Assembly (NCBI GenBank): GCA_937921305.1 | Contig: CAKZSU010000002.1 | Coordinates: 1,711 to 65,710 of the forward strand | Length of the DNA: 64,000 bases | Source of the DNA: an uncultured Patescibacteria group bacterium | GTDB lineage: Bacteria > Patescibacteriota > Microgenomatia > UBA10105 > UBA927 | Direction: 5' to 3' | Shown: positions 8,670 through 40,880 of the stretch, piece after piece | Layout: each line of letters opens with the position of its first letter | Position numbering within the stretch: position 1 is the first letter of the stretch | Translations under genes and position numbers: made by a program | The notes under the pieces: model-generated | The model's database searches: none | Told to the model about the DNA's origin: nothing | The model's input: only the letters and a program-made list of their open reading frames with translations

Positions 8670-8819
8670 AAATCGTCTCGCTCCCATACGAAAGATATGC
8701 TGAATTTGTTCATAAACAACGGTCTTCCTTTTATTGTTCATAAGAAAGAATAGGAAAATAGTCTTCCTTCTCATCGATTAGAAATCCTGAGCCACATACC
8801 GCATGACAGTGTTTTGCCA

Positions 8820-9791: not shown

Positions 9792-9800
9792 AATGTCTTT

Positions 9801-12602: not shown

Positions 12603-12607
12603 GCTAT

Positions 12608-13621: not shown

Positions 13622-13624
13622 AGA

Positions 13625-17015: not shown

Positions 17016-17061
17016 ACGGTCTCTATTCTATATAAAAATGTAGTATCATACTATCGCATCT

Positions 17062-18045: not shown

Positions 18046-18046
18046 C

Positions 18047-18751
18047 ATGATTTCCTCAATTTCACTCCTCATCCCAGCCTACAACGCGAAACAGACACTT
18101 CTTCCCGTTCTTACAAAGGCTCGAAGCATAATAGCATCCATCGCCAACGACAGAGAAATCATCGTCCTTGACGACGGATCAACAGACGAAACCTCTCGCA
18201 TTCTTGCCAATCTTTCATGGAAAGAACTCACTATCCTTCGCCATGAAATCAATCAAGGGTATGGAAAAACAATCAAAGATTTATATTACGCGGCGACGAA
18301 AAAATGGCTTGTTACGCTTCCATCCGATGATCAAATCGACCCGGAAGAAATCCGTAAACTGGCCTCTTGCCATGAACAAGGAGCCATGATCTTGGGAAAA
18401 CGATCAATCCGCCACGACCACCTCAAGAGACGAATACAATCGATGATGTACAATACATTATTGCGTCTTCTCTTTGATATTCCCACAACAGACGCAAACA
18501 CGATCAGACTCATGAAGCGAGAAATTCTTCAACATATAACACTTCGCGCAACGAGCGCGTTTGTTGACGCCGAGCTCATCATCGCGGCTCGAAACGCTGG
18601 ATATACCATTGTTGAAGTTCCGATTAACCATAAACCCAGAACAACGCCCGGCGCGACCGGCGGAAAATTCTTCGCAACCATTCTCCCAACGATTCAAGAC
18701 ATGATCGCGTATGCGATAACGCGTTCTTCTCGCCAATTCACACAATCATGA
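18047..18751 (+). CDS. GT2 family glycosyltransferase
   Basis: ISLLIPAYNAK...IVLDDGSTDET (DXD-type GT-A signature). The start was moved to the internal ATG just after the upstream stop. Confidence 0.7.
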   Translation: MISSISLLIPAYNAKQTLLPVLTKARSIIASIANDREIIVLDDGSTDETSRILANLSWKELTILRHEINQGYGKTIKDLYYAATKKWLVTLPSDDQIDPEEIRKLASCHEQGAMILGKRSIRHDHLKRRIQSMMYNTLLRLLFDIPTTDANTIRLMKREILQHITLRATSAFVDAELIIAARNAGYTIVEVPINHKPRTTPGATGGKFFATILPTIQDMIAYAITRSSRQFTQS

Positions 18752-18770
18752 TATATACTTACCCCTGCCT

Positions 18771-19808
18771 ATGATTCGCGTCCTCGTATTGGGAGCAGGC
18801 GGAGCTCCCTCAACAAATGTTGTCCGATCGCTCAAGAAAAAACGAAAGGCATACTACCTTGTTGGAACGGACGCAAATCCGTATTATCTTGCCCGAGCCG
18901 AGACAGACAAAACTTATCTTGTGCCAAAAGCAGACGATCCCGCGTTCCTCCCAAAACTTCGAGACATTATTCAAAAAGAGCAGATTGAGTATGTCCATAT
19001 TCAAAACGACAAAGAAGTCGCAGTTATCAGCGACCATAGAAATGAAATTCCCGCAACTCTCTTTCTGCCATCACAAGACACGGTTCGCGTCTGTCAAGAT
19101 AAATACGCATCGTATCTCCGGTGGAAACACGCGGGCATTCGTGTGCCGGAAACTATGATGATTAATACAGAAGACGATGTTAAACAAGCATTTTCCTTGT
19201 TTGATGGAATGATCTGGCTTCGATTCACAACTGGCGCGGCAGGAAACGGCTCGCTTAAACCAAAAAATGTTCAACAAGCAATCGCGTGGATCACTTTCCA
19301 CGATGGTTGGGGAAAATTTACCGCGGCGCGCGTGCTTGAGCCAGAAAGCGTCACATGGATGTCCATCTGGTATCAAGGAGAACTTATTGTCGCGCAAGGA
19401 CGAAAACGATTGTATTGGGAAGCGAGCCACCTCGCGCCTTCAGGCATCACTGGCATCACCGGCGCAGGCATCACGATTGACGACCCCGTAGTTGACGACA
19501 TCTCCATAAAAGCAATCAAAGCGATCGATCCCTCTCCACATGGACTCTACGGCGTTGATTTAACATACGATCACACCGGCATCCCAAATCCAACAGAAAT
19601 TAACATTGGACGATTTTTTACCACGCACTTATTTTTTACAGAACTTGGACTCAACATGCCGCATATCGCGGTATCGCTAGCCCTAGGGAAGAAACCAAAG
19701 CTCCCAAAAAAACGGATCAATCCGTTAGATCCTGGATGGGTGTGGATTCGCGGCGTAGACTTCGCCCCTATCCTTATTCGCGAAGAAAACATTGGAAATA
19801 ATCAGTAA
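18771..19808 (+). CDS. ATP-grasp domain protein
   Basis: Glycine-rich N-terminus (RVLVLGAGGAPS) and central/B-loop-like segments resemble PylC/carbamoyl-phosphate-synthase-like ATP-grasp ligases. Assignment from motif recollection only. Confidence 0.45.
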   Translation: MIRVLVLGAGGAPSTNVVRSLKKKRKAYYLVGTDANPYYLARAETDKTYLVPKADDPAFLPKLRDIIQKEQIEYVHIQNDKEVAVISDHRNEIPATLFLPSQDTVRVCQDKYASYLRWKHAGIRVPETMMINTEDDVKQAFSLFDGMIWLRFTTGAAGNGSLKPKNVQQAIAWITFHDGWGKFTAARVLEPESVTWMSIWYQGELIVAQGRKRLYWEASHLAPSGITGITGAGITIDDPVVDDISIKAIKAIDPSPHGLYGVDLTYDHTGIPNPTEINIGRFFTTHLFFTELGLNMPHIAVSLALGKKPKLPKKRINPLDPGWVWIRGVDFAPILIREENIGNNQ

Positions 19809-19850
19809 TCGGCTATTGGCAATCGGCAGTTGATTGTTAGGTGTAATCCT

Positions 19851-20483
19851 ATGACCATTTTTATCGATCTTGACGGAACCATTCTTCACACATTCGTTCG
19901 GCATATCGCAACGCATCACGCGGTTGCGCCTCGCGTTGGACTGCCGATCATTCCTAAAGAAGCATATTGGAGAAAAAAACGAGAGAAACAGACGCCATGG
20001 AACGAGATCTCTCAAGAACAACTCAAAGCATATACAAATCTTTTTCGCATTGAAACCGAACGATCAATCTATCTTTCTCTCGACACGCCGGTGTTTGGCA
20101 TAAAAATGCTTCTGAAAGATCTCACAAAACGCGTTGATCTTGTTCTTGTCACAAAACGATACAACAGAACAAACACGCTGTTTCAGCTCTATGATCTCAA
20201 TCTTCTCTCTTGCTTCACCGATGTGCTCACACCGTTTCCATCCTCGAAACGCGACGCAATTCAAACATATGGATATACACACCGAGATATCGTCATCGGC
20301 GACACAGAAGAAGACATTGAAACCGCAAACGAACTTACCCTTCGGTCTGTCGCCGTCTCATGGGGCATGAGGTCGCCGACCTATCTTGCGTCGCTTGGCC
20401 CAACACGACTCTGTCATACCGTAAAACAATTAAAAAATAATCTCTTTGTCTTGCTTAAGGAGAACTATCCATTGACCAAATGA
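19851..20483 (+). CDS. HAD-superfamily hydrolase
   Basis: Motif I FIDLDGTIL. Later VITKR and GDTEEDIETA motifs are consistent with HAD phosphatases. Confidence 0.6.
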   Translation: MTIFIDLDGTILHTFVRHIATHHAVAPRVGLPIIPKEAYWRKKREKQTPWNEISQEQLKAYTNLFRIETERSIYLSLDTPVFGIKMLLKDLTKRVDLVLVTKRYNRTNTLFQLYDLNLLSCFTDVLTPFPSSKRDAIQTYGYTHRDIVIGDTEEDIETANELTLRSVAVSWGMRSPTYLASLGPTRLCHTVKQLKNNLFVLLKENYPLTK

Positions 20484-20496
20484 TTCCCTTCCTTTA

Positions 20497-21137
20497 GTGT
20501 GTAATCGTATGAACCATACCTTCGCGTCAGTGATGGGAACCATGGGATCAGGGAAAACCACCATCGCGAATCTCATAGCGCAAGAGTGCGAATACACCCT
20601 TGTTCTCGAACAATTTGAAAACAACCCATTTCTTCCGAAATTTTACGCGGATATGAAACGATGGGCGTTTCATTCGCAAATGTTTTTTCTTCTTGAAAAG
20701 GCAAAACAACTTCATGGGATTCCTTCGTTGCTACAACAACAGTCTGTGATTCAAGACACGCCGATCATGCAAGATGTATATCATACGGGAAGGCGCAATA
20801 CGAACTTGGAAACATGGATCATCATGAGTGGAATCTGTATCTCAAAACATACGAAACGATCAGCGCGCATCTTCCAAAACCCGATGTGATCGTCTATCTC
20901 AAGACATCTATCGATACTCTTATGAAACGCATCAAACATCGAGGAAGATCATACGAACAATCAATTCCCAAAGACTATATTGCACTGCTAGATAGACTCA
21001 ACACCTTATGGATTGAATCAACCGACATTCCGATCATTGTTATCGATACCGATGAACGAGATATTGTAAACAAAGAACGCGACAGAGAGTATATAATCAT
21101 TACCCTTCGTCATGAACTTGCCCGTTATGCGCGATAG
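20497..21137 (+). pseudogene. deoxynucleoside kinase (dCK/dGK family) interrupted by a +/-1 frameshift
   Basis: P-loop GTMGSGKTT lies in frame 1 (20497..20889). The ERS-like region, lid region (RIKHRGRSYEQ) and C-terminus lie in frame 0 (to 21137). Homology to the dNK family continues across the frame change near 20700-20760. Confidence 0.5.
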
Positions 21138-21139
21138 CT

Positions 21140-22687
21140 ATGCATAAATTCTTGCTGTTTTTATTTCTCTCATTTGTTGGCACATCGTTGCTTGTCTATA
21201 TCTTCCAAACACGCCAATACCCTCAATGGGATGAACATCACTATCTTACGATCGCGGTAACAACACTTGACGACATCAAGGAACATGGCATCACCGGCAC
21301 ATTCTCGATTCTTGAAAACAGCGGTCATCGACAACCGATTTATCCACTCATCATCGCGACAATCCTACTCGTTACAGGAACAGATCATACCTATAAGATC
21401 GCGCTTGGCCTCAACGCGCTCCTCTTTTGTCTCACGATGATTGGAATTTATCGTATTGCTCGACGATGGCTTTCCAAAACAGCAAGCCTGTTCGCGGTAA
21501 TCACATTTGGAACCTATGGAAACGCACTCTTTTACGCGCATTTTACCTATGTCGAAACCGCGGTCACCGCGGCAATTGTCTGGGCGATCGTCGCGATTCA
21601 TAAAACACAGAAATTTGCAAACACCAAATGGAGTCTCGTCGCGGGGGCGATCGTTTCCGCCGCGACGCTCACGCGATTTATCGCGCCCGCGTTCCTTGCT
21701 GGACCAATCCTTGCGGAATTAATAACCTCGCGGAAACCGTCTCGCGTGTTTTTCAAAAACGCGGGACTCTTTCTTATCATCTCGATAGGATTGCCACTCA
21801 TACTCTACTTTATTCCCAACCGTGAACCATTTTTAGAGTATGTCCGCAACAATCAGACACTTGGACCAGAATGGGTTGCGCAGTATCGCGATCCAGCCAT
21901 GGCAAACATATTCTCCATACGATCGATTATGTATTACTTCAACATCCTACAACAAAACACGATCATTCCATTTCTTGCGTTTGTGTTTGGCATAATGATT
22001 CTGCTTTGGAATATTCCTCGAATCGTTTTAAGAGCATCGTCGAAATATCCTATTTCCATGATTGTGCATCTTCTCTTCTCATTTCTTTTTCCTTATGCGT
22101 TTCTTACTTTCATCACGATTTGGAAAGAGGATCGATTCATCGTTCCGCTCTACCCAACCATGGCGATTATTTCCGCTGTCTTTGTGGATTCGCTTCGCCG
22201 ATGGAGAATGATTCAAACACTTTGCATCACGCTTCTTGTCGGCGTGGGGTTCATGAATTTCTTTGGTGGGCTGTTTGGCATCGGACCAGCGGGACAACGC
22301 GGACTCGTGGATTACATCACGCCCCGATGGGTGCCTCACCCGCGACGAATCTATTTCACACCTCTTGTGTGGCCGCCAACAAAAGAATACACAAATGCGA
22401 GACTCGCCGCGACGATAATTCAAAATGATTGGCAAAATAAAGAACAGACAGACATTGGCATCACGTTTGACCATGAACCATTTATCAACGCGTTTTCTAG
22501 TCTTTTATGGTATGAACAACGAACGCTAGGAACGCTACATCTACAGGCAACAGAAGATATGGAATTTCTTGATTATCTATTCACACAACAGCCTGTTCGC
22601 CATGAAGAACGATGGAAACTCATCGCGACCATTCCGATACCATACGACAAGAGCGACGCCCTTCTCTATAGAAGAATTACTCAGTAA
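21140..22687 (+). CDS. GT-C fold glycosyltransferase, ArnT/PMT-like (GT39/GT83-like)
   Basis: TM1 is followed by PQWDEHHY, a DE motif in the first extracytoplasmic loop as in ArnT/PMT enzymes. Multiple further TM helices. 515 aa. Confidence 0.55.
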   Translation: MHKFLLFLFLSFVGTSLLVYIFQTRQYPQWDEHHYLTIAVTTLDDIKEHGITGTFSILENSGHRQPIYPLIIATILLVTGTDHTYKIALGLNALLFCLTMIGIYRIARRWLSKTASLFAVITFGTYGNALFYAHFTYVETAVTAAIVWAIVAIHKTQKFANTKWSLVAGAIVSAATLTRFIAPAFLAGPILAELITSRKPSRVFFKNAGLFLIISIGLPLILYFIPNREPFLEYVRNNQTLGPEWVAQYRDPAMANIFSIRSIMYYFNILQQNTIIPFLAFVFGIMILLWNIPRIVLRASSKYPISMIVHLLFSFLFPYAFLTFITIWKEDRFIVPLYPTMAIISAVFVDSLRRWRMIQTLCITLLVGVGFMNFFGGLFGIGPAGQRGLVDYITPRWVPHPRRIYFTPLVWPPTKEYTNARLAATIIQNDWQNKEQTDIGITFDHEPFINAFSSLLWYEQRTLGTLHLQATEDMEFLDYLFTQQPVRHEERWKLIATIPIPYDKSDALLYRRITQ

Positions 22688-24440
22688 CCCTGTACACAAC
22701 AGCCATATCGTTTCGATACACTTCCGTCAAAAATGGATAAAACACGCGAAGATCATCCGCTCCATACGCCATTTCCCGCTCTTCAGGGCCAAACAACACA
22801 TATTGAATCCTATTTTCTCTAAACACAGGAGGAAACTCATTAGCCGGACGTTTTCTTCCAAAAAAATTCGCGACAATAATCCCCTTTTCTTCCACTTTCA
22901 CCGTGTTGGCATGACCAATATACGCATAATTCCCCGCGTAGACAGGAATAAGATTGCCTGTAGCTAGACCAGAGAATATAGCAACATCTCGCGGTGTATT
23001 TACTTGAAGCCACACCATCGCATCAACAAGATCACGCAATGGATACATCACTTCAGCGCCTTTTGGCACAAGTGGAATATCTGCGCGTAATTTGTGATCC
23101 ACAAAATCCTTTTGCCATAACCACGACGAATACATGCTCCCCATTCCAAGAAGAATCACTACAATCGGAATAAGCAACACAATATCTGACACTGTTGATA
23201 CGTTTTTCTTTTTGATCCATTTATACAGCCCCCATACGCCATAGAGCGATAACACGCCAAGCGGAATATGCGGGGCCATTTGTGAAAATCGCGTCGGCGA
23301 TTGTTGCGGAATATAATTAAATATCACAATAAACGCCAACCACGCGATCACCCAAACAACAAATCCAAGAAACTTCTGCTCTCTTTTAATGATGACAACC
23401 AACAACCCAAGAAGCCCCAACGGCAACACTGGACCAACCGCCAAAAAATACTCGATATATGAAAACTTCGTCGGGTGCAATACATCAAATTCCACCAGCC
23501 GCTTCCATGGATACTGTTGAAATAGAAGCGCGTAATACACCATCGTTGGGAATGTCATTGCGACGAACACGATTCGTCCAAACAATCGCTCTTTGAAAAG
23601 CGTCCAAAACGATCCACTGATCAACCGACGCGATGCTAGAGTCCGAGCAACAAATAATCCTCCCACATCAACAATCATCCATAATGCAAGAACGCCGTAC
23701 AAGAAAAACAACGCGGGAGGAAATATCACCCCAAGAAGCACACCAATCCAGCCAAGAAATACCCAATTCCCGTACCGTCTCTTTGTGAGAAATCCTCCGG
23801 AAAACACCCAAAGAAAAAACGCGAGCATTGCTTGTCCGACCAACACATGCGGAAGAAACGTCGTTCGTTGCAAGCTATCCATCATAGTATACCACGGCAT
23901 GTAACCGCCAAAGCGAGGCCATCCGTCAACGGTTTCCAGTTTGGGCCATGTTGATGCCGTCACGATGAGCAAAAACGAAAGAATCTGCCACGAAAAACTC
24001 GGAAACGCCCATCGCGAAATCTGCCATATAACAAACAACAACACTCCAGCGAAAAATACTCGCATGGTGTGATATGACAACCATACATATGGCGTTTGCA
24101 CATGAAGCCAATCAGACACACGACCAATAAAAACATAGAGTATTTGACTCAAACTTCCCTCGTGCGGTTCCGTCGTGTACTTCTCTTTCGCAAGCCACGC
24201 ACCCTCCTTGCCCTGCCGAATTTTAGAAAGATACAACTGATAGTCTGTTGGGAAATTATGAACCAACTCAAAATATCGGATCGGTTTAATCTTCCACCGA
24301 TTCATCCATTCATAGAGCGTCGGCGTCATCGAAAACAGGAGAAAAAAACCAATCAAAAATAACGGAAGCAACGACCGAACATATCGAAACACCCGAGCAG
24401 TCATAGTGATAGTATGTAGTGTACAAAATTTAGAAAGCAT
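22677..24440 (-). CDS. large polytopic membrane protein, putative GT-C glycosyltransferase
   Basis: More than 10 hydrophobic helices. No soluble catalytic motif. Context among other GT-C genes. Confidence 0.4.
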   Translation of the reverse strand: MLSKFCTLHTITMTARVFRYVRSLLPLFLIGFFLLFSMTPTLYEWMNRWKIKPIRYFELVHNFPTDYQLYLSKIRQGKEGAWLAKEKYTTEPHEGSLSQILYVFIGRVSDWLHVQTPYVWLSYHTMRVFFAGVLLFVIWQISRWAFPSFSWQILSFLLIVTASTWPKLETVDGWPRFGGYMPWYTMMDSLQRTTFLPHVLVGQAMLAFFLWVFSGGFLTKRRYGNWVFLGWIGVLLGVIFPPALFFLYGVLALWMIVDVGGLFVARTLASRRLISGSFWTLFKERLFGRIVFVAMTFPTMVYYALLFQQYPWKRLVEFDVLHPTKFSYIEYFLAVGPVLPLGLLGLLVVIIKREQKFLGFVVWVIAWLAFIVIFNYIPQQSPTRFSQMAPHIPLGVLSLYGVWGLYKWIKKKNVSTVSDIVLLIPIVVILLGMGSMYSSWLWQKDFVDHKLRADIPLVPKGAEVMYPLRDLVDAMVWLQVNTPRDVAIFSGLATGNLIPVYAGNYAYIGHANTVKVEEKGIIVANFFGRKRPANEFPPVFRENRIQYVLFGPEEREMAYGADDLRVFYPFLTEVYRNDMAVVYRVTE

Positions 24441-24552
24441 TATGAAACTAGAAGAACGATATCTTTTCTCTAGTTCATCTGACTAATACTTTAATCCAAC
24501 GCGCATCTAGAAAAGAAAGAAAAAACACGATATAACAAATAATATTGATCTT

Positions 24553-25245
24553 ATGGAACATGAAGAACAAGAGATGAAATCGTTTCTCCGTGTTGGGGCG
24601 ATTGTCGCGATTTGTGTTGTTATCCTTCTTAGCGTTGTTTTTGTGTGGAACGCGTGGACCGTTCAACGAAACGGCAAGGTCGTCTTTCATGCGGGTGTCA
24701 CTTACACCGGACCAGATCAAAAACAACAGAAACAACTCCCGGAAAAATTTGCTGTCGATGATACAACGAAATGGATTAGAATAACTGGAAAGCTCTATCC
24801 GTACTCTTTTGAAGCTCCGGAAACGCTAACGCTTGTCCGATTTGACAACGACCCTTACGATATCTACGCGGTCTCGTACAACAATCAACCGCCAAGCTCC
24901 CACGTCCTCATCGGTGTTGATGATCTCTCGGCAAAAAAAGAACTCAAACAATACATTAAACAACCAAAAACAGTATATGTCCAAGAATGGTGGAAACACA
25001 TCGGCGGATTAAGCGGCATGTCGTCAATCACTCCATTCACAAACAGCAACGGATTAAAAGGATATCGCGCGAAATTTCTTCTCAAGAATGGAACACCAAC
25101 GCCATACGACGATGTATTCTTTGAAGTGCCGAAACGAAATGATCTTATAATCCATCTCTCGAACAACATTCTTGAATCAACAGTATTTGAACGCATTGTA
25201 GATTCACTCTCTTGGAGTTCTACTGCGTCAGGAATAACAAAATAG
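24553..25245 (+). CDS. hypothetical membrane-anchored exported protein
   Basis: Single N-terminal TM (AIVAICVVILLSVVFVW) followed by a hydrophilic domain. Confidence 0.35.
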   Translation: MEHEEQEMKSFLRVGAIVAICVVILLSVVFVWNAWTVQRNGKVVFHAGVTYTGPDQKQQKQLPEKFAVDDTTKWIRITGKLYPYSFEAPETLTLVRFDNDPYDIYAVSYNNQPPSSHVLIGVDDLSAKKELKQYIKQPKTVYVQEWWKHIGGLSGMSSITPFTNSNGLKGYRAKFLLKNGTPTPYDDVFFEVPKRNDLIIHLSNNILESTVFERIVDSLSWSSTASGITK

Positions 25246-25316
25246 CGTAAAAAGTTCCAATATGATTCTTATCTAAAAATCGACAATTTGCGATTGATAA
25301 TTGATCATCATGATTT

Positions 25317-27200
25317 ATGAGACTATTATTCATCACCATTGTCTTCATCCTCGGGTTGTTTATTCGATTATTTTTTGTTCCAAATCCTGGCTTTGAAGCA
25401 GATATCGCATTTTGGAAAGGATGGGGACTCGCGGCCGCTGACAATGGCGGACTGTGGGCAATACTTAACACAAATAATAATTACCCTACGCTATTTGTGT
25501 ACACGCTTGGCGCGATGGTTCATCTGTATCGTCTCCTCGGAGGCGAGCCTCACAATGTCCATTCATACTGGATGAATACGAATCTTCGATTTCTGTTTGT
25601 CTCAAAACTCCCCTCGATCCTCGCGGATGTTGGAATCGCGGGAATTATTCTCTATGTCGGCAAACGATTTAACCACCTCTTTTCATACACTTTTGTGAAT
25701 CAGAAACAGAGACAAAAACAAAAGAACCCTATCACCGCGCTTCTTGAATCTCAATGGCTCTTTCCTTTTCTCGCCGCACTGTATTTGCTCAACCCTGTAT
25801 CAATCATGGACGGCTCGTGGTGGGGGCAAGTAGATAGTCTTGGCGTTGCATACTTTCTCCTCGTTGTGATCGCCATCTTACATAAACGGATGATGCTCAC
25901 AGGAGCGCTGTTTATATTCGCGATGATGACAAAACTTCAAAATATGATTTATGGACCACTCTTGTTTGTGTTCATATGGCATACATTCGGTGTTCGCGCG
26001 ATGACAAAAACAATCGTCGGAGCGATCATCGCATTTTTTGGATTGAATATCGAATTTTTTCTCTCAAAAAACATGCACCTCGTCATAGGCTCGCTTATCA
26101 ATAATTATGATTACTTCCCGTATATGTCGTTGCACGCGTATAACCCGTGGTGGATTATTTCTGAAGGAAACGGCATGGGCGTGTCTGACAAATTTCTGGT
26201 TATTGGGATACTAAACGCAAAAACCGTGGGTACCATCATCTTCGCATCGTGCTACCTTGTTGCTGTCCTCGCGATAATTCTACCAACATTGCTCCGCATG
26301 AAGCAAAGAACTCCGAAAAATCAAACAGACGCTGACGAACGACAATCATTCTTTTGTTTTATTCTTGGCCTCTGCCTTGTGAATCTTGCGTTTTTCTTAT
26401 TTCTCACCCAATCACATGAACGATACGCCTTCCCCTTTTTTGGATTCAGTTTGCTCCTCGCGCCATTTCTTTCTCATCAACGCAAAATCGTCTTTCTTGT
26501 GTTGTATTGCGTATTTTCCTTCGTTTATTTTCTTAATCTCCACACCGCCTTCGCGCACAATTATCCAGAAAACGTCTTTCAATGGCTTCGATTTCTCGCT
26601 TCGTCCAGCTACACGAATCTTTTATCTTTCATAAATATAGCGATCTTTGCCATATTCATACTTCTCTTTGCAAACGACTTCACAAAGCACACCCTAGGAA
26701 TTGGTGTGATCGTATGTATTGGATTACTTCTCTTTGGAAATCATTCATATCTTCTTAGACAACCCATACATCTCTCCTCGATTACTCCATATCAAAGTTG
26801 GCAAGCGTATGGGGCGCGACAAACAAACATGCCTGTGTCTTCCTCTGGGTCAAATCCAAAGAGCTGGACGTTTCTCTCGACGCAATATGCATTCTTCCGA
26901 AAAGGCATTGGAACACACGCTAATAGCGCAATCTCATATGACATTGGAAAGAAATTCTCAATATTTCGAACAGACTATGGCATTGACACAAACGCAGGAA
27001 CTCAAGCATCCGCAATCTTCGAAATCTGGGGAGACGATAAGTTGCTCTTTCAGTCAGATGTCATGAGGCGATTCGACATGCCAAAACATGTAGTCATTAC
27101 TGTCAAGGGGATAAAGACACTCACACTTATCACGCGAGAAGCAAAAGACGGAAATACCGATGATCACACAAATTGGTTGAATCCTAAACTATATAGATAA
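25317..27200 (+). CDS. polytopic GT-C-like membrane protein with C-terminal NPCBM-like carbohydrate-binding domain
   Basis: N-terminal ~520 aa are multi-TM, with GFEADIAFWKGW after TM1. The C-terminal ~110 aa (GIGTHANSAISYDIGKKFSIFRTDYGIDTNAG...FEIWGDDKLLFQSDVM...VITVKGIKTLTLITREAKDGNTDDHTNWLNPKL) follow the NPCBM/F5-8-like pattern. Confidence 0.55.
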   Translation: MRLLFITIVFILGLFIRLFFVPNPGFEADIAFWKGWGLAAADNGGLWAILNTNNNYPTLFVYTLGAMVHLYRLLGGEPHNVHSYWMNTNLRFLFVSKLPSILADVGIAGIILYVGKRFNHLFSYTFVNQKQRQKQKNPITALLESQWLFPFLAALYLLNPVSIMDGSWWGQVDSLGVAYFLLVVIAILHKRMMLTGALFIFAMMTKLQNMIYGPLLFVFIWHTFGVRAMTKTIVGAIIAFFGLNIEFFLSKNMHLVIGSLINNYDYFPYMSLHAYNPWWIISEGNGMGVSDKFLVIGILNAKTVGTIIFASCYLVAVLAIILPTLLRMKQRTPKNQTDADERQSFFCFILGLCLVNLAFFLFLTQSHERYAFPFFGFSLLLAPFLSHQRKIVFLVLYCVFSFVYFLNLHTAFAHNYPENVFQWLRFLASSSYTNLLSFINIAIFAIFILLFANDFTKHTLGIGVIVCIGLLLFGNHSYLLRQPIHLSSITPYQSWQAYGARQTNMPVSSSGSNPKSWTFLSTQYAFFRKGIGTHANSAISYDIGKKFSIFRTDYGIDTNAGTQASAIFEIWGDDKLLFQSDVMRRFDMPKHVVITVKGIKTLTLITREAKDGNTDDHTNWLNPKLYR

Positions 27201-29668
27201 TGAAACACACCCACACAATCGAACCATCGCCACAAAAAACAAATCGTCGATTTCGCTCATTCTTTGAACACGGAATCGCATGGTTCATGCTTGCTTTTGC
27301 GATAGGCTTTAATCTCTGGATTTATCGTCTCGAACCAACAAGTGTCGTCGATCCAAACGACAATCCCTTTCAATACGCGCTCGTGGAACGAACCAATCAA
27401 ATCTGGGACTATGCGACAGAGACGTGCGGGATAAATCTTCTCTGTTTCACTGGCTATCTTCTCGATCACTGGGTGCCAAATTGGGCGCAAGGCTACAATC
27501 TGCCACATTATTACTCTCATCTTCCGCAAATCGCGATCGTGGCAAGTTATAGAATGCTCTCGGCGATCAGCAGTCAGCTGACTGTAATCAGCTTGTTTTC
27601 GTATTATCACATCGTCATCTATCTTCTTCTTTGCTTCTTCCCGCTTTCATTGTTTCTTGCATTCCGCATTATAAAAGCGCCTCCGATTATAGCCGGAAGC
27701 GCGGCGCTCATCGCCAGTCATATCTCAACCGATGGACTGTACGGCCTCGATCCATCGTCATTTCTCTGGCGAGGATATGGACTAACCAGTCAATTATTCG
27801 CCATGATCTGGATACCTCTTGCCATCGCGTCGGCGTATCGATTGTTCGTTAACGATACTGCGATTCGATATGCGTCAGTAAAATCATTTACTGCCTCCAT
27901 CGGCTCTCTTCCGTTTGTCAAAACGACAATATTCTTCCTTATTTTAACCATCAGCGGGCACCTTGGACTAGGTATCGTCACGATACTCTCTCTTGCAGTT
28001 CTTGCACTGACAAAACCAGTATTGGGCATTCTTTTGAAACAGTCATTCGGCGTAATCATTGCAAAAACACGAGATCAATTCCTGAAACTGTTGCTTGTCT
28101 ACGGATCGACGATATTTTTTCTTAGCTATTGGATTGTTCCCACGCTTTTGTATAAAGAGTATCACAACTATTCCTTCTGGGATCCGATATGGAAATTCAA
28201 CTCGTATGGCTGGAGACAGATTATGGAATGGTTTGTCAACGGCGACCTCTTTGACTTTGGACGAAGCATCCCAATCTTTACTATCCTTCTTCTTATTGGT
28301 GGCGCATCAGCGTTTCTTGCAAAGCTCCCCGAACAATCAAGCGAAAACCAAGAATCAATCGGTCGTCTCGCTCCATTCTCATTGCTCTTCTCGTTCTGGC
28401 TTCTCATGTTTTTTGGCAGAACCACATGGGGCGGACTCCTTGATCTCATCCCAAGCATGAAAGAATTTCACCAATCGCGATTCATCGTTGGCGTTCATCT
28501 CGCGGGATTGTTTCTCATTCCTTTTGGAATATGGATGATAAGCGACACGCTCGTAGCGATCTTCTATCGCGTCTTCTCAGGGATCAAAAATCGCCTTCCG
28601 GAACATATACATCCTGTCTTGTCAACTACGCTGATCATTGGCGTCACGATCACCATATGCGCGCTGTCCTATCCACAAACCATACGGTACGCGTCGCATA
28701 ACGATGTTTTGATTCGACAAGGCAACGCGAATGCAAAAAAACAAAAAGGGGATCTTGATCGTCTGATTACAGCACTCAAACAGTCTCCCTCGGGGAGAAC
28801 TTACCCGGGGAGAGGTGGATCGTGGGGGAAAAATCTCGTAATCGCGGAAACGCCTTATTACATGCATCTTTCAACCTACGGTATACCGGTTATTCTTTGG
28901 CTTCCTCAAACATGGTCGCCGAATTCCGATGTGGAGCAATTTTTTATCGAAGAATGGAAAGAACACTACAATCTTATGAATATCAATCGCGTCGTCACGC
29001 CGCCAAATCATACACCGATTCAACCCTTTTGGCAACTCAAAGAAAAAACTCCACAATGGGAGCTATACACAGTGGAAACGTCGGGATATATCGGAGCGGG
29101 AAGCCATGCCGCTGTTGTCTATAGTTCAAAATTTGATTTCATCAATCTCGTCCGTCTCTGGCTTCAATCTGATTATGTAAAACGAGGCATCGTTCCTCAA
29201 CTAACCTTTAATCGATCGGAGATGATAAACTCTCCCATTCCTGCATTCGAAATACTCGATGAAGCGACATATCGAACACGAGACGGAACTATCTATGGAC
29301 TTTTTCAAGAGCCTCCACGCTACGAAGCGCCTGAAGCAAAAATTGTGGTAAAAGAAGTTGCAACAAAAGCAGATATGGAATTTGTAGCAAACGCCACAAT
29401 CCGCGAACCATGTGAGCGATGCATCGTGTTTCTGAAACAAACGTTTCACCCAAATTGGCGCGTGTGGATCAACGGAAAAGGAACAGAGCCATTCATCAGT
29501 TTTCCTTTTTATATTGCGGTAAAACTAACGACGCCTGGTGATCATGAAATTGTCTTCAAGTATCAACCAGGCGCACTCAAGATGATGCTATTCACCTTTT
29601 CGTTTATGACAGGAGCACTTCTTGTTGTTTTTTTATTTATAAAATATGTTCGCGCCCGCATATCTTAA
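27200..29668 (+). CDS. YfhO-family large membrane protein (GT-C fold glycosyltransferase)
   Basis: 822 aa with many TM helices. The C-terminus FHPNWRVWINGKGTEPF...AVKLTTPGDHEIVFKYQP matches the characteristic YfhO C-terminal motif. Confidence 0.5.
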   Translation: MKHTHTIEPSPQKTNRRFRSFFEHGIAWFMLAFAIGFNLWIYRLEPTSVVDPNDNPFQYALVERTNQIWDYATETCGINLLCFTGYLLDHWVPNWAQGYNLPHYYSHLPQIAIVASYRMLSAISSQLTVISLFSYYHIVIYLLLCFFPLSLFLAFRIIKAPPIIAGSAALIASHISTDGLYGLDPSSFLWRGYGLTSQLFAMIWIPLAIASAYRLFVNDTAIRYASVKSFTASIGSLPFVKTTIFFLILTISGHLGLGIVTILSLAVLALTKPVLGILLKQSFGVIIAKTRDQFLKLLLVYGSTIFFLSYWIVPTLLYKEYHNYSFWDPIWKFNSYGWRQIMEWFVNGDLFDFGRSIPIFTILLLIGGASAFLAKLPEQSSENQESIGRLAPFSLLFSFWLLMFFGRTTWGGLLDLIPSMKEFHQSRFIVGVHLAGLFLIPFGIWMISDTLVAIFYRVFSGIKNRLPEHIHPVLSTTLIIGVTITICALSYPQTIRYASHNDVLIRQGNANAKKQKGDLDRLITALKQSPSGRTYPGRGGSWGKNLVIAETPYYMHLSTYGIPVILWLPQTWSPNSDVEQFFIEEWKEHYNLMNINRVVTPPNHTPIQPFWQLKEKTPQWELYTVETSGYIGAGSHAAVVYSSKFDFINLVRLWLQSDYVKRGIVPQLTFNRSEMINSPIPAFEILDEATYRTRDGTIYGLFQEPPRYEAPEAKIVVKEVATKADMEFVANATIREPCERCIVFLKQTFHPNWRVWINGKGTEPFISFPFYIAVKLTTPGDHEIVFKYQPGALKMMLFTFSFMTGALLVVFLFIKYVRARIS

Positions 29669-29712
29669 TTTCTCAAAACCTGGCCTTACAATAAAATTCA
29701 TCTCAGCTCAAC

Positions 29713-30006
29713 TTGCTAAACATTCCTCTTGACAACTCCGTAAAAATTCGGTTTCATAATAGTATGAAGAAAAAACCTGTCCTAAAAAAGAAACCGCAAG
29801 CAAAATCATCTTCAACGGTAAAAAAAATTGCGAAAAAATCCGATACAACGAATAAACGAGAAGACATTCATATTATTCTCATTCGAAGCTGGGCATTCCT
29901 CGTGTTGTTTGCCTTCATGCTTGGCATAGGCGTGATCGTAGGAAATTATATTAATGCCCAAATGAACGGCTACCCCACGGTCGCTGGTGCTTCGACTTCC
30001 CGATAA
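29713..30006 (+). CDS. small lysine-rich membrane protein, hypothetical
   Basis: K-rich N-terminus followed by one TM helix. Confidence 0.3.
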   Translation: MLNIPLDNSVKIRFHNSMKKKPVLKKKPQAKSSSTVKKIAKKSDTTNKREDIHIILIRSWAFLVLFAFMLGIGVIVGNYINAQMNGYPTVAGASTSR

Positions 30007-30043
30007 TTTCCCCTCTCAAAACATGCTATAATATCTGCAATAC

Positions 30044-30114
30044 GGGCTCGTAGTATACCGGTAGAACGTCTCCATGGCATGGAGAAGGAAGGGGTTCAAT
30101 TCCCCTCGAGTCCA
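30044..30114 (+). tRNA. tRNA-Ala (anticodon GGC)
   Basis: Hand-folded cloverleaf. Acceptor stem GGGCTCG/CGAGTCC with a G3:U70 pair (alanine identity). Anticodon stem TCTCC/GGAGA with loop ATGGCAT. T-arm AGGGG-TTCAATT-CCCCT. The D-arm is irregular. No encoded CCA. Confidence 0.55.
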
Positions 30115-30244
30115 CCCCTCCTCAATCCTACATTTAGATAGCGCGAAACCCGTCTACAAACTTCATCGCGGAACACACATTGCAAAGATAGTAATCAATT
30201 GTGATGAAGAAGCAATAATCTTATGGTAGAATAATAATTGCTTT

Positions 30245-30317
30245 GGGCCTGTAGCACAGTTGGTAATGCGCCGCATTCGCATTGCGGAGATCAGCGGTTC
30301 GAATCCGCTCAGGTCCA
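30245..30317 (+). tRNA. tRNA-Ala (anticodon CGC)
   Basis: Acceptor stem GGGCCTG/CAGGTCC with G3:U70. Anticodon stem CCGCA/TGCGG with loop TTCGCAT. T-arm AGCGG-TTCGAAT-CCGCT. Confidence 0.75.
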
Positions 30318-30322
30318 CTAAC

Positions 30323-31429
30323 TTACTTTAGGTACGCCCCCGGATTAATCACCGGAGCGCCATTGACTCGGACTTCAAAATGCAAGTGAATCCCCGTTGA
30401 TCTCCCTGTTGACCCCATCTTTCCAATCACTTGCCCCTGAGAAACTTTGTCACCAACTTTCACATACATTTCCGAAAGATGCGCGTAGAGCGTGGACAAC
30501 CCATCGCCATGATCGATAATGATATGCCGCCCATAATCATACCGAAGGGACGCAACATAGACAACCGTTCCATCCCCAGCAGCGACAATCGGCGGAGCAA
30601 CTGGATTCGCTATATCATAAGCCTTGTGGTACCAAATAGGATATTGGGTAATTGTTCCGCTTGTTGGCCAGATGAATCGACCAGACCCGCCAGTAGTTAC
30701 CGGTGCTTGCGGAGACGCGAAACGCGGAGCAGTTTGTTGTGGAGGAGGCGGAGCTTTTGGCATAACGCCATCGGGAACGATCAGGATTTTCCCAACCGTC
30801 AATCCAAAGGTGTCAAGATCGGTAAATTCATTAAAAATCCAGTTCGCGATCTTTTGCGGATCAGTTCGATATCGCTTGGCAATGCTATAAATCGTTTCCC
30901 CTTCTCTTACTTTATGAACAATCCCTGTCACAGGAGGAATTTTCAATGTTTGTCCAATAGAAAGATTTGTCCCGGTCATATTGTTTGCCCATTGAATGGT
31001 CTCGACAGAAATGCCATATTTTTGCGCGATACTTGATAGTGTGTCTCCCTGTTGCACCGTATATTCTTCAATCACATCTCTAGGTTTGTCCGAGCGATCC
31101 GTCCGCACACCATATTCCGAAAAATCAAGCGACGTCGCAACAGCAGAAGGAGGCGTAAAAGAAGCCAAATCAGATTGCGATGTCAACCCGGGATAGGTAT
31201 CTGCCAAAATCGGCGCGGCAAGAATGCCAACGGCAAACAATACAATAACGGAAAAATGCAAAAATGGCTTTTGATACATTCCTCGCCGAGCCATAAGGAT
31301 ATCCACAACCGCGTCTTTCTGCTCTTCAAACCATTTCGAAAATAGTCGAAGCCGACGATCAAAATAATAGATCAACCCTCGTCTCCAAAGAGAGATATCA
31401 TCAAGAAACAAACGAATACGCTTCTTCAT
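30323..31429 (-). CDS. LysM-domain M23 family metallo-endopeptidase
   Basis: Two LysM repeats (QGDTLSSIAQKYGISVETIQWAN; EGETIYSIAKRYRTDPQKIANW). C-terminal M23 motifs HxxxD (HHGDG) and GSTG...HLHFE. Confidence 0.85.
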   Translation of the reverse strand: MKKRIRLFLDDISLWRRGLIYYFDRRLRLFSKWFEEQKDAVVDILMARRGMYQKPFLHFSVIVLFAVGILAAPILADTYPGLTSQSDLASFTPPSAVATSLDFSEYGVRTDRSDKPRDVIEEYTVQQGDTLSSIAQKYGISVETIQWANNMTGTNLSIGQTLKIPPVTGIVHKVREGETIYSIAKRYRTDPQKIANWIFNEFTDLDTFGLTVGKILIVPDGVMPKAPPPPQQTAPRFASPQAPVTTGGSGRFIWPTSGTITQYPIWYHKAYDIANPVAPPIVAAGDGTVVYVASLRYDYGRHIIIDHGDGLSTLYAHLSEMYVKVGDKVSQGQVIGKMGSTGRSTGIHLHFEVRVNGAPVINPGAYLK

Positions 31430-31478
31430 GATCCTTGAAGGGTATCAAAGAAGAGGAGGAAAAGCAAATTTTTTTCGA

Positions 31479-31506
31479 TTGACAAATCATTAAGCATGTG
31501 TATAAT
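31479..31506 (+). promoter_or_regulatory. near-consensus sigma70-type promoter (TTGACA-N16-TATAAT)
   Basis: TTGACA at 31479-84 and TATAAT at 31501-06. An AAGGAGGA RBS lies ~7 nt before the ATG at 31565. Confidence 0.5.
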
Positions 31507-31564
31507 ATTTTCAAATATTCCTTGATGGAATGTTTCATGAAGCGTAAAGAAGAAGGAGGATGCC

Positions 31565-33781
31565 ATGGCAAATCCCAAAGAAGCTCCAAAAAGAAATCCT
31601 ATCACAACAGAAGATCAAAAAATAATCCCGAATAACTGGAAAAATAACTGGAAAAGCCTTGTTGCGTCAGCACTGTTTGCTATATCTTCTGCTGTAGTTC
31701 CTGACAGACAAGCATCCCCTTCTTCTGTTGACGACAGAGCATTAGAAATATTAAACGGACAACGACAACGAAGAATATCGCTTGTTGTGGATCAACGTGG
31801 TGATATATTTTCTCGAATTTCCCTCCCTGAATCTTCACGATCGGAGGAGCAGCAGAGAAACCTTGGAGCATTTGTGGAGCTTCCATCGATAGGAACTTTT
31901 ACAAAAGAAGAACAAAAACGCATACAAGCGCTGGTGTCAAATCGATTTTCTAATGCAACAACCGGAAGATATCTTATTCCTACTGCGGATGAGTCAGAAC
32001 TCTCCTCTCTTCTTTCGGATGAATCACCATTTGCTCAATATATTCATAAGATAATGCAGATAAGAAGATCAATAGAAGGAGAAGTGCAACTACTACTACT
32101 CATCCAGAAAGAAAATAGCCAGAAAGAAAATAGCGTTAAACAAGTAAGTATTATCTTCCAACCGATGGGTTCGCTTTCTCTTGGAGAGAGGATGGTAAAT
32201 CCGGAAAATCCAACATGGATTTTTCCAGGGAAAGATGGTGGATTACGAGTGATTGATGCGGGAAATTTACCTCAAGGAGCATCTCTTGATGCTATTACAG
32301 ACAGGCGTGATCTTCTAACTCTTCAAAGGAGCGCAAGAGCGCAAGGCTATGAAATTGATCTTTCGTCATATAACGGGGGATTTGTTCCTGTAATAAGAGA
32401 TGAGAAAGGACGGGTGATTCGCGTATTCGGCGAGAAAGGACCGGTCACATTTGAGCAACCATATATAAGACATACTGGAGGAGATCCAGTGAATATTCGA
32501 GATAATCCTTCCACATCTGGGAATCGTGTTGGATCATTCACATCAACAGGAGAGCCACTACGCGTGATAACTCCTGAAGAATTTCAAGAATACAGAGAAG
32601 CGATTCCTGATCAGACACGACTTTCGATAGAAAATAATAGAGTAACTTATAATGATGGTCGATATACATGGATTGCTGTATCATACGAAGGAAAAATACG
32701 ATGGGTTGCCCAGTTTCCTCAAATCCAACCATTTTCTCAACTCGAAGGAGTTTCGATAAGACAAGAAGCAATAAAAGAGTCATTCTCAAATAATCCAAAT
32801 ATCCTTGCTCGTCAACTTCGCCTCCCTGAAGGACAGTATAATTTTTATACAAATGAAGATTATGGACCGATAGAAATGTTACGAGATCAAAATGGAAAAA
32901 TTTGGGCAGTAAAAAAAGAAGGACAAGCAAACTGGCAAACAGCCGAAATGGTCGCAAGAGAATTAGGATTAGATACGCATGGAACCATAGAAATACCCGG
33001 ACTAGTAATTCAAAGACGAGAAGAAAAATTATACTATTATTTTTATAGTGATCTCTTGAATCTCTTTCTTAAAGAAGAAAGACCAAGCGGCAATAGACGA
33101 GGCATTGTTGCCATGTTTGACCATGAAACAGGAGATTGGTTAAATTTTCAATATGCTCAATATCGGATGATTGGTGTCCAAAACCTTGGAATCGTTAATA
33201 ATCCCCCATTGGGAATCGGATATAGTCGAGCTGCAGAACGATTTTTCTCTTTATATGGCGTAGGTGGAGGAGTAAGAAAAGTAGATCTTTGGATTTCCCC
33301 AGAATTGCATATTACAAAAATATTGAGGGTATATTGGTTAGAAAATCCCGGTCCAAGAACACCATGGACGCTTGAAAATCTTGCAATGAGAACCACAGTC
33401 ATTGTCCTTGACGGAACATTTAATGGTCAACAAATACAAGTATATGACAGTGAAATTTCTGAGGTTGAAAAATATTTACAAACAGTAGGTGTCCTTATCC
33501 GCAGTAGAATTAATATTGATCCAAGGTCGGAAAAAAATTTTCCAAAAACAACTCTATCCATATGGGATTTCATGGGGAGAGGAGAAAGATTGAATCTCCC
33601 ATGGGAAGAATATCAACGAAGACTAAACGATTTTTATCGTCAACATGGAGTGATGTTTGTCCAACTTGAAAGAATAGATACCAGAGAAAATCCTTATTAT
33701 CCAGGTCATTTTCGATTTCAAGTAGTGCCGTTCCCACCTGCGTTTCCTCCACATCCAATATATCCTGAAGATCCTAAATAA
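31565..33781 (+). CDS. large hypothetical exported protein (738 aa)
   Basis: One N-terminal hydrophobic segment (LVASALFAISSAVVP). No recognisable catalytic motifs. Proline-rich C-terminal tail. Confidence 0.4.
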   Translation: MANPKEAPKRNPITTEDQKIIPNNWKNNWKSLVASALFAISSAVVPDRQASPSSVDDRALEILNGQRQRRISLVVDQRGDIFSRISLPESSRSEEQQRNLGAFVELPSIGTFTKEEQKRIQALVSNRFSNATTGRYLIPTADESELSSLLSDESPFAQYIHKIMQIRRSIEGEVQLLLLIQKENSQKENSVKQVSIIFQPMGSLSLGERMVNPENPTWIFPGKDGGLRVIDAGNLPQGASLDAITDRRDLLTLQRSARAQGYEIDLSSYNGGFVPVIRDEKGRVIRVFGEKGPVTFEQPYIRHTGGDPVNIRDNPSTSGNRVGSFTSTGEPLRVITPEEFQEYREAIPDQTRLSIENNRVTYNDGRYTWIAVSYEGKIRWVAQFPQIQPFSQLEGVSIRQEAIKESFSNNPNILARQLRLPEGQYNFYTNEDYGPIEMLRDQNGKIWAVKKEGQANWQTAEMVARELGLDTHGTIEIPGLVIQRREEKLYYYFYSDLLNLFLKEERPSGNRRGIVAMFDHETGDWLNFQYAQYRMIGVQNLGIVNNPPLGIGYSRAAERFFSLYGVGGGVRKVDLWISPELHITKILRVYWLENPGPRTPWTLENLAMRTTVIVLDGTFNGQQIQVYDSEISEVEKYLQTVGVLIRSRINIDPRSEKNFPKTTLSIWDFMGRGERLNLPWEEYQRRLNDFYRQHGVMFVQLERIDTRENPYYPGHFRFQVVPFPPAFPPHPIYPEDPK

Positions 33782-34186
33782 AAATATACAAATTTTCTTC
33801 TTATTGTCTTTGTAAGATACAAAATATCTCTACTTATAGAGTTCTACCATTTTGCTAAACTTTTTGATCTGATACATAATCATGACATATAATAAAGTTC
33901 TCGAATCGTTTAGCTTTTTCATTTACATAAAAAACAGCGTTTGTATATTACATTTCCTTTATTAAGATTTTATCTTACCGCAAAGATTGCATCATACCGA
34001 TTATTTTTTTATCATATTAGTTGTAAAAAGCAGTAAACAACGATGTTAAAGTAACATGTAATAAATACCATCACTCCATCCTTTTTTTAAATGAATTTAT
34101 TGAGAAGATATATTCTAATAAAAAGATGCAAAAAGAAATATATTGTATTAAAAATAATAATCGTTTCATAAAATAGATAATAACTT

Positions 34187-34960
34187 ATGCATGTAAAAAC
34201 ATTTTTTGATTCCATCTGGAAACATAAAATATCTATTATTCTTTTTGCACTATTTTTTTCTCTGTTTGTTTCTATAGTAATCTACAGCATTAGGGCAAAT
34301 CCTAGTATAAAAAATACTATAAAAAAATATACTACTCCTAAAAAAACATATCGAGAACAAGAATTACTTCAAAAAATGAAAACGTTCGCGTTTCGAAACG
34401 GAGAACCTGCTCTTGCAAGAGGTATTACCGGTGGAGCAAAAGATTACGGTGGCAACACAATAAAAGGCGTACTTGCGGATATTACAACCAATCCAATACC
34501 TATCAAAACAAAAGATGGAAAAGAAATTGCAAAATCAATCATGACGTTTACTATTTTCTATATCAATGATTATAACGAGCTTGAAAAAATATATTTATCT
34601 GCAGCCATTCAATTTCCTGATGGATCATATTATCTGATAAGCGATAATCCAATTCGATTACCAAATGATACCGTAAATGATGAATATTATTACGATAAAA
34701 TTGGCACACCAGTATTCGCGCTCTTTCGAACAAATACAACATTAGGGCTAGAAACACTTAAACAACAAGGAAAATCTAAAGAAGAGCTTGATGCTGCAAA
34801 ACGAATTTTTTCATTTATTCAAACATATGAATCAAGCTGGAAGGAAGAACTAGACACGCTTGTTCTAGGAGGAAGAAAAGGAGCGTTGGAATTTCTCTTT
34901 CCTATCGCCTATAGCGATGATAGCTTTCGTCTTGAATATCAAGTATTTACTATTCCTTGA
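34187..34960 (+). CDS. hypothetical membrane-anchored protein (257 aa)
   Basis: N-terminal TM (ISIILFALFFSLFVSIVIYSI). Remainder hydrophilic. Confidence 0.35.
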   Translation: MHVKTFFDSIWKHKISIILFALFFSLFVSIVIYSIRANPSIKNTIKKYTTPKKTYREQELLQKMKTFAFRNGEPALARGITGGAKDYGGNTIKGVLADITTNPIPIKTKDGKEIAKSIMTFTIFYINDYNELEKIYLSAAIQFPDGSYYLISDNPIRLPNDTVNDEYYYDKIGTPVFALFRTNTTLGLETLKQQGKSKEELDAAKRIFSFIQTYESSWKEELDTLVLGGRKGALEFLFPIAYSDDSFRLEYQVFTIP

Positions 34961-36672: not shown

Positions 36673-36736
36673 GGAAATAGGTACGCCTTTTAGTTCCTAA
36701 CTTTCGAAACAAAGAAAAATTCCACAAGCAACAATC

Positions 36737-38299: not shown

Positions 38300-38500
38300 A
38301 GGAAGGAATACTTGCTGATTTATATCATCTATGAGACATATTTATGAAATACGACAAATACATGTTAGTAAGATGTGTAAGCGATAGATTTCCTTTTGGA
38401 GGATATCATACATATTACATCATAAACCAGTAAAAATGTCAAGGAAGAAACTATTTCGGAAGCGTTAACATTGGTTAAGAAATAGAAAATTATTCGTTAA

Positions 38501-40840: not shown

Positions 40841-40880
40841 AGAGCATACTTATAGTAATATAATTATATACAGGGAAAAC

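Follow-up and report, generated by a model that had tools for sequence, protein, structure and literature searches.

A CBM51 (NPCBM) domain at the C-terminus of a putative GT-C membrane glycosyltransferase encoded in a conserved Gottesmanbacteria gene module

Why should a lectin-like domain be found at the end of a protein that otherwise resembles a membrane-embedded glycosyltransferase, and what might it do there? The question is raised by a 64,000-nt stretch of DNA (hereafter the window; contig CAKZSU010000002.1, assembly GCA_937921305.1, uncultured Patescibacteria group bacterium), in which an earlier note, made from the nucleotide sequence, had read the end of one open reading frame (ORF; 25317..27200) as an NPCBM-like carbohydrate-binding module (CBM) fused to a GT-C-like polytopic scaffold. 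It had described this architecture as unusual, and had proposed that the module may hold the acceptor glycan. The gene and its parts are as follows.

25317..27200, + strand: whole gene, encoding a putative membrane glycosyltransferase of GT-C fold (627 aa) that ends in a CBM51/NPCBM domain (ORF, homologues, AlphaFold2 model)
25317..26741, + strand: polytopic GT-C domain (GT-C_B-like; GT87/ALG6/PIG-M-like), aa 1-475, with ~13 predicted membrane crossings (Foldseek, weak Pfam matches in homologues, loop pattern)
25389..25403, + strand: GFEAD motif (G25-D29), directly after the first transmembrane helix and invariant in 66/66 sequences; E27 and D29 are candidate catalytic acidic residues in the predicted first extracytoplasmic loop
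26763..27197, + strand: CBM51/NPCBM beta-sandwich, aa 483-627 (Pfam PF08305, PDB profile matches, Foldseek)

The C-terminus of the protein was confirmed to be a true NPCBM/CBM51 domain. In the full-length protein the Pfam model PF08305 (NPCBM) scored 107.9 bits (E=5.4e-31; gathering score 23.9 bits) over aa 503-625, covering profile positions 16-136 of 137, and the C-terminal 133 aa alone matched it with E=3.5e-32, values that place the resemblance far beyond chance. The same domain was found in all 66 homologues examined, and a profile of these family members recovered the solved CBM51s of Clostridium perfringens from the PDB sequences (ZmpB 7js4, E=1.8e-32; GH95 2vmg/2vmh at ~1e-21, with 2vmg at E=1.1e-21; also 7jrl), matches that a single-sequence search repeated. 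The domain begins at ~aa 483 (26763, and not at 26800 as the earlier note had it, which was right in placing it at the C-terminus), since its first strand (L-S-S-I-T-P-Y...Y-G-x-R-Q) aligns with the N-terminal strand of the solved CBM51s. Most of the motif string that the note had drawn up could be read in the protein (GIGTHANS, FEIWGDDKLL, VKGIKTLTL, DDHTNWLNPKL), with the exceptions that 'Y-x-L' reads YDI and 'G-x-DD' reads GIDTN. Over the 66 sequences the invariant residues of the domain are G530, G532, H534, S537, D557, D573, D615-D-H617 and W620. The family shows no variation in the residues that it has in common with sugar-binding CBM51s (GxGTHA, G-x-D, D-D-H-x-x-W). The F5/8 type C family (PF00754), which had been put forward for checking beside NPCBM, gave no Pfam match at E<=1 in the protein; its name appears only in the depositors' titles of the PDB entries for the CBM51-containing ZmpB.

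The structural model agrees with these assignments. Built with AlphaFold2 (AF2) on the 66-sequence alignment (mean predicted local distance difference test, pLDDT, 90.1; predicted template-modelling score, pTM, 0.89), it consists of a helical bundle up to ~aa 475 succeeded by an all-beta domain in which pLDDT is mostly above 90. When searched with Foldseek against the PDB, the beta domain was superposed on 2vmg/2vmh/2vmi (template-modelling score, TMt, 0.83-0.84; root-mean-square deviation 2.3-2.8 Å; E ~1e-9; 29% identity) and was also found similar to 7jrl, 8pvs, 2ygm and 2vng. The CBM51s of C. perfringens GH95, GH98 and ZmpB (2vmg, 2vng, 7jrl, 7js4) are thus alike to the present domain in PF08305 membership, in the beta-sandwich (template-modelling score 0.84, 28-29% identity) and in the GxGTHA/GxD/DH motifs, but differ from it in the second His of the 'THAHS' motif (Asn here) and in context: they are carried by secreted enzymes that break down the glycans of a host (glycoside hydrolases and O-glycopeptidases), whereas here the domain would form the C-terminus of a membrane-embedded biosynthetic transferase.

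For the helical domain, whose ~13 hydrophobic crossings lie within the 7-13 that are usual in GT-C proteins, the Foldseek matches in the PDB were yeast ALG6 (6snh, E=1.5e-5, TMt 0.54), glycosylphosphatidylinositol (GPI) mannosyltransferase I (9wno, TMt 0.61) and the GT-C-fold subunit PIG-U (8imx_U, 7wld_U). At the level of family models the protein has no match in NCBIfam, and its transmembrane domain none in Pfam, with GT87 (PF09594, DUF2029; Pfam gathering score 25 bits) absent even at E<=1, whereas 33 of the 66 homologues show weak matches to GT87/DUF2029 (best E=2.3e-6), 6 show matches to Alg6_Alg8, and the NPCBM-bearing relatives from Planctomycetota pass the GT87 cutoff (37.5, 34 and 28.9 bits); several homologues were named 'Gpi18-like mannosyltransferase' by JGI. 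As the query lacks a match that half of its homologues show weakly and remote relatives show clearly, we regard the N-terminal part as a GT-C_B-like relative of GT87, ALG6 and PIG-M that cannot be assigned with certainty to a single Pfam family. An acidic motif in the first extracytoplasmic loop defines GT-C enzymes, and the position of GFEAD agrees with it (PMC11127046); together with the fold matches, this invariant motif bears out the GT-C-like character claimed for the N-terminus. Further residues invariant over the 66 sequences are D165, W169, G170, Q171 and D173, the stretch T205-K-L-Q-N-x-I-Y-x-P214 (here TKLQNMIYGP), N263, D265-Y-F-P268, W278-W279, S366-H-x-R-Y370, N407-L-H409 and Y416; on the alignment, GFEAD, D165/W169/Q171/D173, TKLQNMIYGP and S-H-x-R-Y seem to fall where the active sites of GT-C enzymes lie. 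ALG6 (GT57), GPI mannosyltransferase I/PIG-M (GT50) and the GT87 enzymes (PimE/DUF2029) share the membrane fold and the acidic first outer loop with the query, but, unlike it, have no appended carbohydrate-binding module.

On which side of the membrane the CBM would lie can be predicted from the loops. Averaged over the alignment, loops 21-89, 160-172, 205-213, 251-300, 363-370 and 411-432 are highly conserved and poor in K/R, while loops 118-146, 189-191, 225-231, 327-343, 386-390 and 453-457 are unconserved and K/R-rich, and the two classes alternate strictly. Because the CBM follows the helix that comes after the K/R-rich loop 453-457, it should lie on the conserved face, which in GT-C enzymes is the extracytoplasmic, active-site face (textbook knowledge, restated in PMC11127046). 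We therefore infer that CBM51 lies on the extracytoplasmic face, on the same side as the catalytic loops and, given that the linker between the last transmembrane helix and the domain measures ~8 residues (<10), close to them. The placement that the earlier note had put up for checking is thus the predicted one, and the all-beta fold is present in the AF2 model.

The fusion proved to be widespread. A search with the full-length protein yielded at least 310 clusters, of which the best 120 were all full-length (45-67% identity), contained PF08305 and, where named, were assigned to Candidatus Gottesmanbacteria or Patescibacteria. A locus scan (one genome per GTDB species, with patterns drawn from the transmembrane domain only) identified 79 loci in species-level genomes, all from metagenome-assembled genomes (MAGs) of Patescibacteria/Microgenomates and mostly from Gottesmanbacteria; all loci that were not cut by contig ends align through residue 625-627, and hence keep the CBM, which by these alignments is a fixed part of this GT-C family. 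(Many of the MAG records with the gene module described below, which is Patescibacteria-specific, e.g. L002, L003, L007 and L008, are titled 'uncultured Gammaproteobacteria bacterium', likely a placeholder or mislabel.) To look beyond the family, the transmembrane domain alone was searched exhaustively (phmmer) against 1.84 billion representatives, which gave 1641 matches at E<=1e-3, of which 436 were left at E<=1e-10 and 35 at E<=1e-30. Among the best 150 of these 1641 relatives, 32 end in a CBM51; the other 118 lack it and, with a median length of 428 aa, correspond to a bare GT87-like core, the commonest form. The CBM-bearing remote relatives (26-32% identity in the transmembrane domain) belong to Planctomycetota/Phycisphaerae and Eisenbacteria and have GT87 or PIG-U plus NPCBM above the Pfam threshold; those from Planctomycetota and Eisenbacteria bear the NCBI name 'NPCBM/NEW2 domain-containing protein'. 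The GT-C plus CBM51 architecture is thus, as judged from these domain matches, multi-phylum and already catalogued by domain name at NCBI and JGI, and its retention both in the uncut loci and in relatives of 26-32% identity indicates selection for the fusion. An oddity specific to the candidate phyla radiation (CPR), or a mis-assembly, is excluded by the 79 loci and the occurrence in several phyla. In the literature on NPCBM/CBM51 with GT-C, Patescibacteria or Gottesmanbacteria we found no description of this family. Taken together, these counts answer the question whether related genomes hold the same fusion in the affirmative, and show the term 'unusual architecture' to be overstated, all the more so as NPCBM occurs outside glycoside hydrolases (fusions with VanZ/lipocone membrane enzymes have been reported) and as Emb, AftD and GT136 (see below) offer precedents.

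The gene is embedded in a four-gene module (TM587, p230, GT-C–CBM51, YfhO-like) that is conserved in ~60-70 species-level genomes, as was established by searching the window proteins (tblastn) against the 79 loci. The other three genes, together with a GT2 gene of the window that recurs near the module, are the following.

27200..29668, + strand: putative YfhO-family GT-C membrane protein, 822 aa (PF09586 and name in homologues); its start codon (ATG) shares a base with the stop codon (TAA) of the CBM51 gene, as TAATG
24553..25245, + strand: p230, 230 aa, immediately upstream; anchored in the membrane by its N-terminus, the remainder being a predicted extracytoplasmic domain (synteny)
22677..24404, - strand: TM587, a divergently oriented 575/587-aa polytopic protein with a predicted GT-C_A fold (STT3/AglB/PglB, DPY19, AftA, ArnT-like; AF2 and Foldseek)
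18008..18751, + strand: short GT2, 247 aa, DPM1/ArnC/dolichyl-phosphate-hexose-transferase-like (Pfam GT2); candidate polyprenyl-phosphate-sugar synthase

The YfhO-like gene lies directly downstream in 72 of the 79 loci. Its 822-aa product is itself without a Pfam match, and we judge it a likely YfhO-family GT-C from its homologues (at 45-50% identity, about one third carry a precomputed PF09586 annotation, and one has the NCBI name 'YfhO family protein'). Upstream, p230 is present in 59/79 loci, with W146, G167, F189, P193 and W221 invariant; neither it nor its orthologues matched Pfam, and searches of NCBIfam and the PDB were likewise negative, even with a profile. TM587, found in 63/79 loci, gave no Pfam or NCBIfam match in any of 120 homologues and none to the PDB sequences with a profile; in its AF2 model (pLDDT 91, pTM 0.91), which Foldseek aligned to STT3/AglB (E down to 6e-10) and to AftA (template-modelling score 0.53), it appears to be a GT-C_A glycosyltransferase of an unnamed family. 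Profile-profile comparison (hhalign) of the N-terminal domain of the GT-C–CBM51 protein, the YfhO-like protein and TM587 detected no similarity (probabilities ~1%), so the three clustered membrane proteins are not recent paralogues. In many loci a distant TM587 paralogue (527 aa) and a 270-aa gene are inserted by the module; a homologue of the short GT2 lies near it in 22 loci, and in ~7-10 loci an M23/LysM peptidase, rho and a DUF2298 'YYY' membrane protein are located downstream. A scan for consensus promoters and terminators around the module gave nothing above shuffled expectation.

A comparable arrangement was observed in Eisenbacteria, where the operon on JAGQHS010000081.1 encodes an LPG_synthase_TM (flippase-like) protein, a GT2 and then two NPCBM-bearing polytopic proteins. 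The 259-aa GT2 is 29% identical to the short GT2 of the window (E=5e-29), and the first of the two polytopic proteins (2500..4917, 805 aa, NPCBM C-terminus with 128 bits) is directly upstream of the GT-C–NPCBM homologue and unrelated to it, for which reason NPCBM seems to recur as an accessory at the C-termini of different membrane transferases. The order flippase-like protein, GT2, GT-C–NPCBM resembles that of the three-component glycosylation systems (GtrA/GtrB/Gtr*, CsbB/GtcA/YfhO, PgfS/PgfM), whose layout this operon reproduces. The window resembles these systems in its PgfS/ArnC/DPM1-like GT2s and in the likely YfhO-family GT-C directly downstream of the CBM51 gene, but differs from them in that three different GT-Cs are clustered instead of one and that no GtrA-type flippase was identified beside the Gottesmanbacteria module.

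On the assumption that these resemblances extend to function, we consider that the protein is probably an active GT-C_B-type (GT87/ALG6/PIG-M-like) glycosyltransferase which, as part of the conserved module, would use a polyprenyl-phosphate-sugar donor at the outer face of the cytoplasmic membrane, and whose CBM51 would bind the acceptor or the product. The sugar would be transferred to a glycan of the cell surface or to one attached to lipid or protein, while CBM51, next to the catalytic loops, would bind this glycan acceptor or growing product, raising its local concentration and possibly setting register or processivity. DPM1/ArnC-like GT2 lipid-sugar synthases would feed the module, in which the enzyme would work beside a translationally coupled YfhO-family GT-C, a divergently encoded STT3/AftA-like GT-C and a small anchored protein. 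In favour of this reading, the YfhO-like and STT3/AftA-like neighbours are themselves presumed extracytoplasmic GT-Cs, the synteny with the YfhO-like gene (72/79) is accompanied by the stop/start overlap, and candidate lipid-sugar synthases of the GT2 type are present within the window. The principle would be that known from EmbA/B/C, AftD and the GT136 ORF12 of Citrobacter youngae, in which a polyprenyl-phosphate-sugar-dependent GT-C is joined to a C-terminal beta-rich, acceptor-binding CBM (PMC11127046); those enzymes belong to the GT-C_A class and carry CBMs of other families, in contrast to the GT-C_B-like core and CBM51 of the present protein. In EmbC, AftD and GT136 ORF12 it is the acceptor polysaccharide that the CBM binds, in the case of ORF12 the unmodified O-antigen backbone (PMC11127046), and by this analogy and the predicted topology the holding of an acceptor glycan, as the earlier note had suggested, would be the best-supported role for the CBM.

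Several observations weigh against this reading. The transmembrane domain of the query falls below every Pfam and NCBIfam threshold, and its topology is deduced from the positive-inside rule and conservation, with DSSP assigning a single long helix to residues 207-243 where loop parity needs two crossings (a hairpin). As regards the CBM, NPCBM domains have also been reported in intracellular conflict systems; CBM51 has at least three recognition modes (the ligands of characterised members being galactose, blood-group A/B antigens and N-acetylglucosamine), so the sugar specificity is here not predictable; and the CBM of GT136 is dispensable in vitro (PMC11127046), owing to which acceptor holding may not be essential.

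The same observations can be arranged differently. PIG-U, which is among the fold matches and which relatives of the protein match in Pfam above threshold, is a GT-C scaffold of the GPI transamidase without catalytic function, and a gene so tightly coupled to that of the YfhO-like protein could encode a similar subunit, binding a lipid-linked glycan through its membrane domain and the sugar of this glycan through CBM51, and presenting the substrate to (or acting as a chaperone for) the YfhO- or STT3-like enzymes. We think this unlikely, as GFEAD and other polar motifs of the outer face are invariant over the 66 sequences, as would be expected of a working active site, and as the true transferases ALG6 and GPI mannosyltransferase I are the better fold matches. 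It is also improbable that CBM51 is mainly a structural or protein-contact domain, equivalent to the soluble domains of PglB or ArnT, that might dock p230 or the YfhO-like protein: the very short linker, the confident placement of the domain relative to the membrane domain (pTM 0.89) and the conservation of these two partners would suit such a role, but the invariance of the residues shared with sugar-binding CBM51s does not, and the presence of the same module on a different polytopic protein of Eisenbacteria argues for portable ligand binding.

A third possibility, that CBM51 serves as an adhesin or sensor for host-cell glycans with the membrane domain as a mere anchor, takes up the episymbiotic habit that is common among Patescibacteria, as well as the host-type sugars (galactose, blood-group antigens, N-acetylglucosamine) bound by characterised CBM51s. 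A domain that starts ~8 residues past the last transmembrane helix would be buried under the cell wall or surface layer; moreover, the membrane domain of 475 aa is highly conserved and contains motifs like those of an active site, and the same architecture is found in the free-living phyla Planctomycetota and Eisenbacteria. We hold this explanation to be very improbable and reject the adhesin role on account of the short linker and the conserved catalytic-type motifs. Against all three alternatives stand the motifs of catalytic type that do not vary, a linker of ~8 residues and the presence of the architecture in free-living phyla, which make them less likely than the glycosyltransferase reading.

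Beyond the module, the window contains further genes that could contribute to extracytoplasmic glycosylation.

21140..22687, + strand: putative GT-C enzyme, PMT_2/Glyco_transf_22-like, 515 aa (PF13231 E=1.9e-9, PF03901 E=6e-7)
8820..9791, - strand: PgfS/ArnC-like GT2, 323 aa, next to a set of genes for amino-sugar nucleotides; the second candidate for a polyprenyl-phosphate-sugar synthase
38501..40840, - strand: DUF2298/chlor_Arch_YYY membrane protein, 779 aa (449 bits)

The PMT_2-like gene was not found to be syntenic in the other loci of the 79-locus comparison. The short GT2 shows weak NCBIfam matches to ArnC, AglJ, dolichyl-phosphate-hexose transferase and PpgS, all below their cutoffs, and the 323-aa GT2 matches PgfS over its full length (251.6 bits) and ArnC (135 bits), in neither case reaching the equivalog cutoff. 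The latter gene opens a sugar-nucleotide cluster (8820..18045) with a DegT aminotransferase, a GNAT protein, two epimerase/dehydratases, an NTP transferase and a transketolase whose N and C halves are separate genes; its composition suggests the synthesis of an N-acetylated amino-deoxy-sugar, followed by loading onto polyprenyl phosphate. Between 40881 and 48463, two unannotated polytopic proteins (546 and 593 aa) are encoded beside two methyltransferases, a GT4, a 195-aa protein and a UbiA-family prenyltransferase, a set that recalls the pentofuranose systems of PMC11127046, in which a polyprenyl-phosphoribose synthase is paired with a GT-C.

Some features of the window stand apart from glycosylation. 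Tandem tRNA-Ala genes (GGC and CGC anticodons; 30044..30318, + strand) lie between the YfhO-like and M23/LysM peptidase genes. The 23S rRNA gene (55773..58981, - strand) was matched over 3209 nt against a 2925-nt model, the ~280 extra nt representing a possible insertion or intron; it is preceded by tRNA-Ala(TGC) (59180..59253) and followed by the 5S gene (55541..55658, - strand), and as the next upstream gene encodes an aminotransferase, the 16S gene is apparently unlinked. Over positions 1..64000 the GC skew is negative in nearly all 2-kb bins (-0.06 to -0.20), whatever the gene strand, with the exception of the stretch at 32-36 kb (GC 0.37, skew slightly positive), which contains ORFs of 738, 257 and 571 aa without Pfam matches or synteny and may be a foreign insert.

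What the fusion means for these organisms can be stated at two levels. A GT-C_B-type enzyme with a CBM51 would carry the concept of CBM-assisted GT-C enzymes, as established for mycobacterial Emb/AftD and for GT136, into a further GT-C class and a further CBM family. This would not be a new principle, and since the proteins are already catalogued by domain name the novelty is modest. A bolder and rather doubtful extension is that the CBM51-tipped GT-C_B enzymes perform the acceptor-selecting step of an undescribed envelope-glycan assembly line, in which three unrelated GT-Cs (STT3/AftA-like, GT87-like–CBM51 and YfhO-like), together with p230, would assemble, wholly outside the membrane, a surface glycopolymer or glycoprotein that is essential to Gottesmanbacteria, with the lectin as a ruler or processivity clamp. 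If this were true, the presence of NPCBM on different polytopic transferases across phyla would mark a general and unrecognised class of 'lectin-guided' extracytoplasmic glycosyltransferases. Bacteria of the CPR have genomes of ~1 Mb and envelopes that are largely unknown, and to extracytoplasmic glycosylation the window devotes at least five large putative GT-C genes, along with several candidate lipid-sugar synthases. The family may offer an entry point to the envelope glycobiology of the CPR, in which the CBM, once isolated, could serve to probe for the surface glycan.

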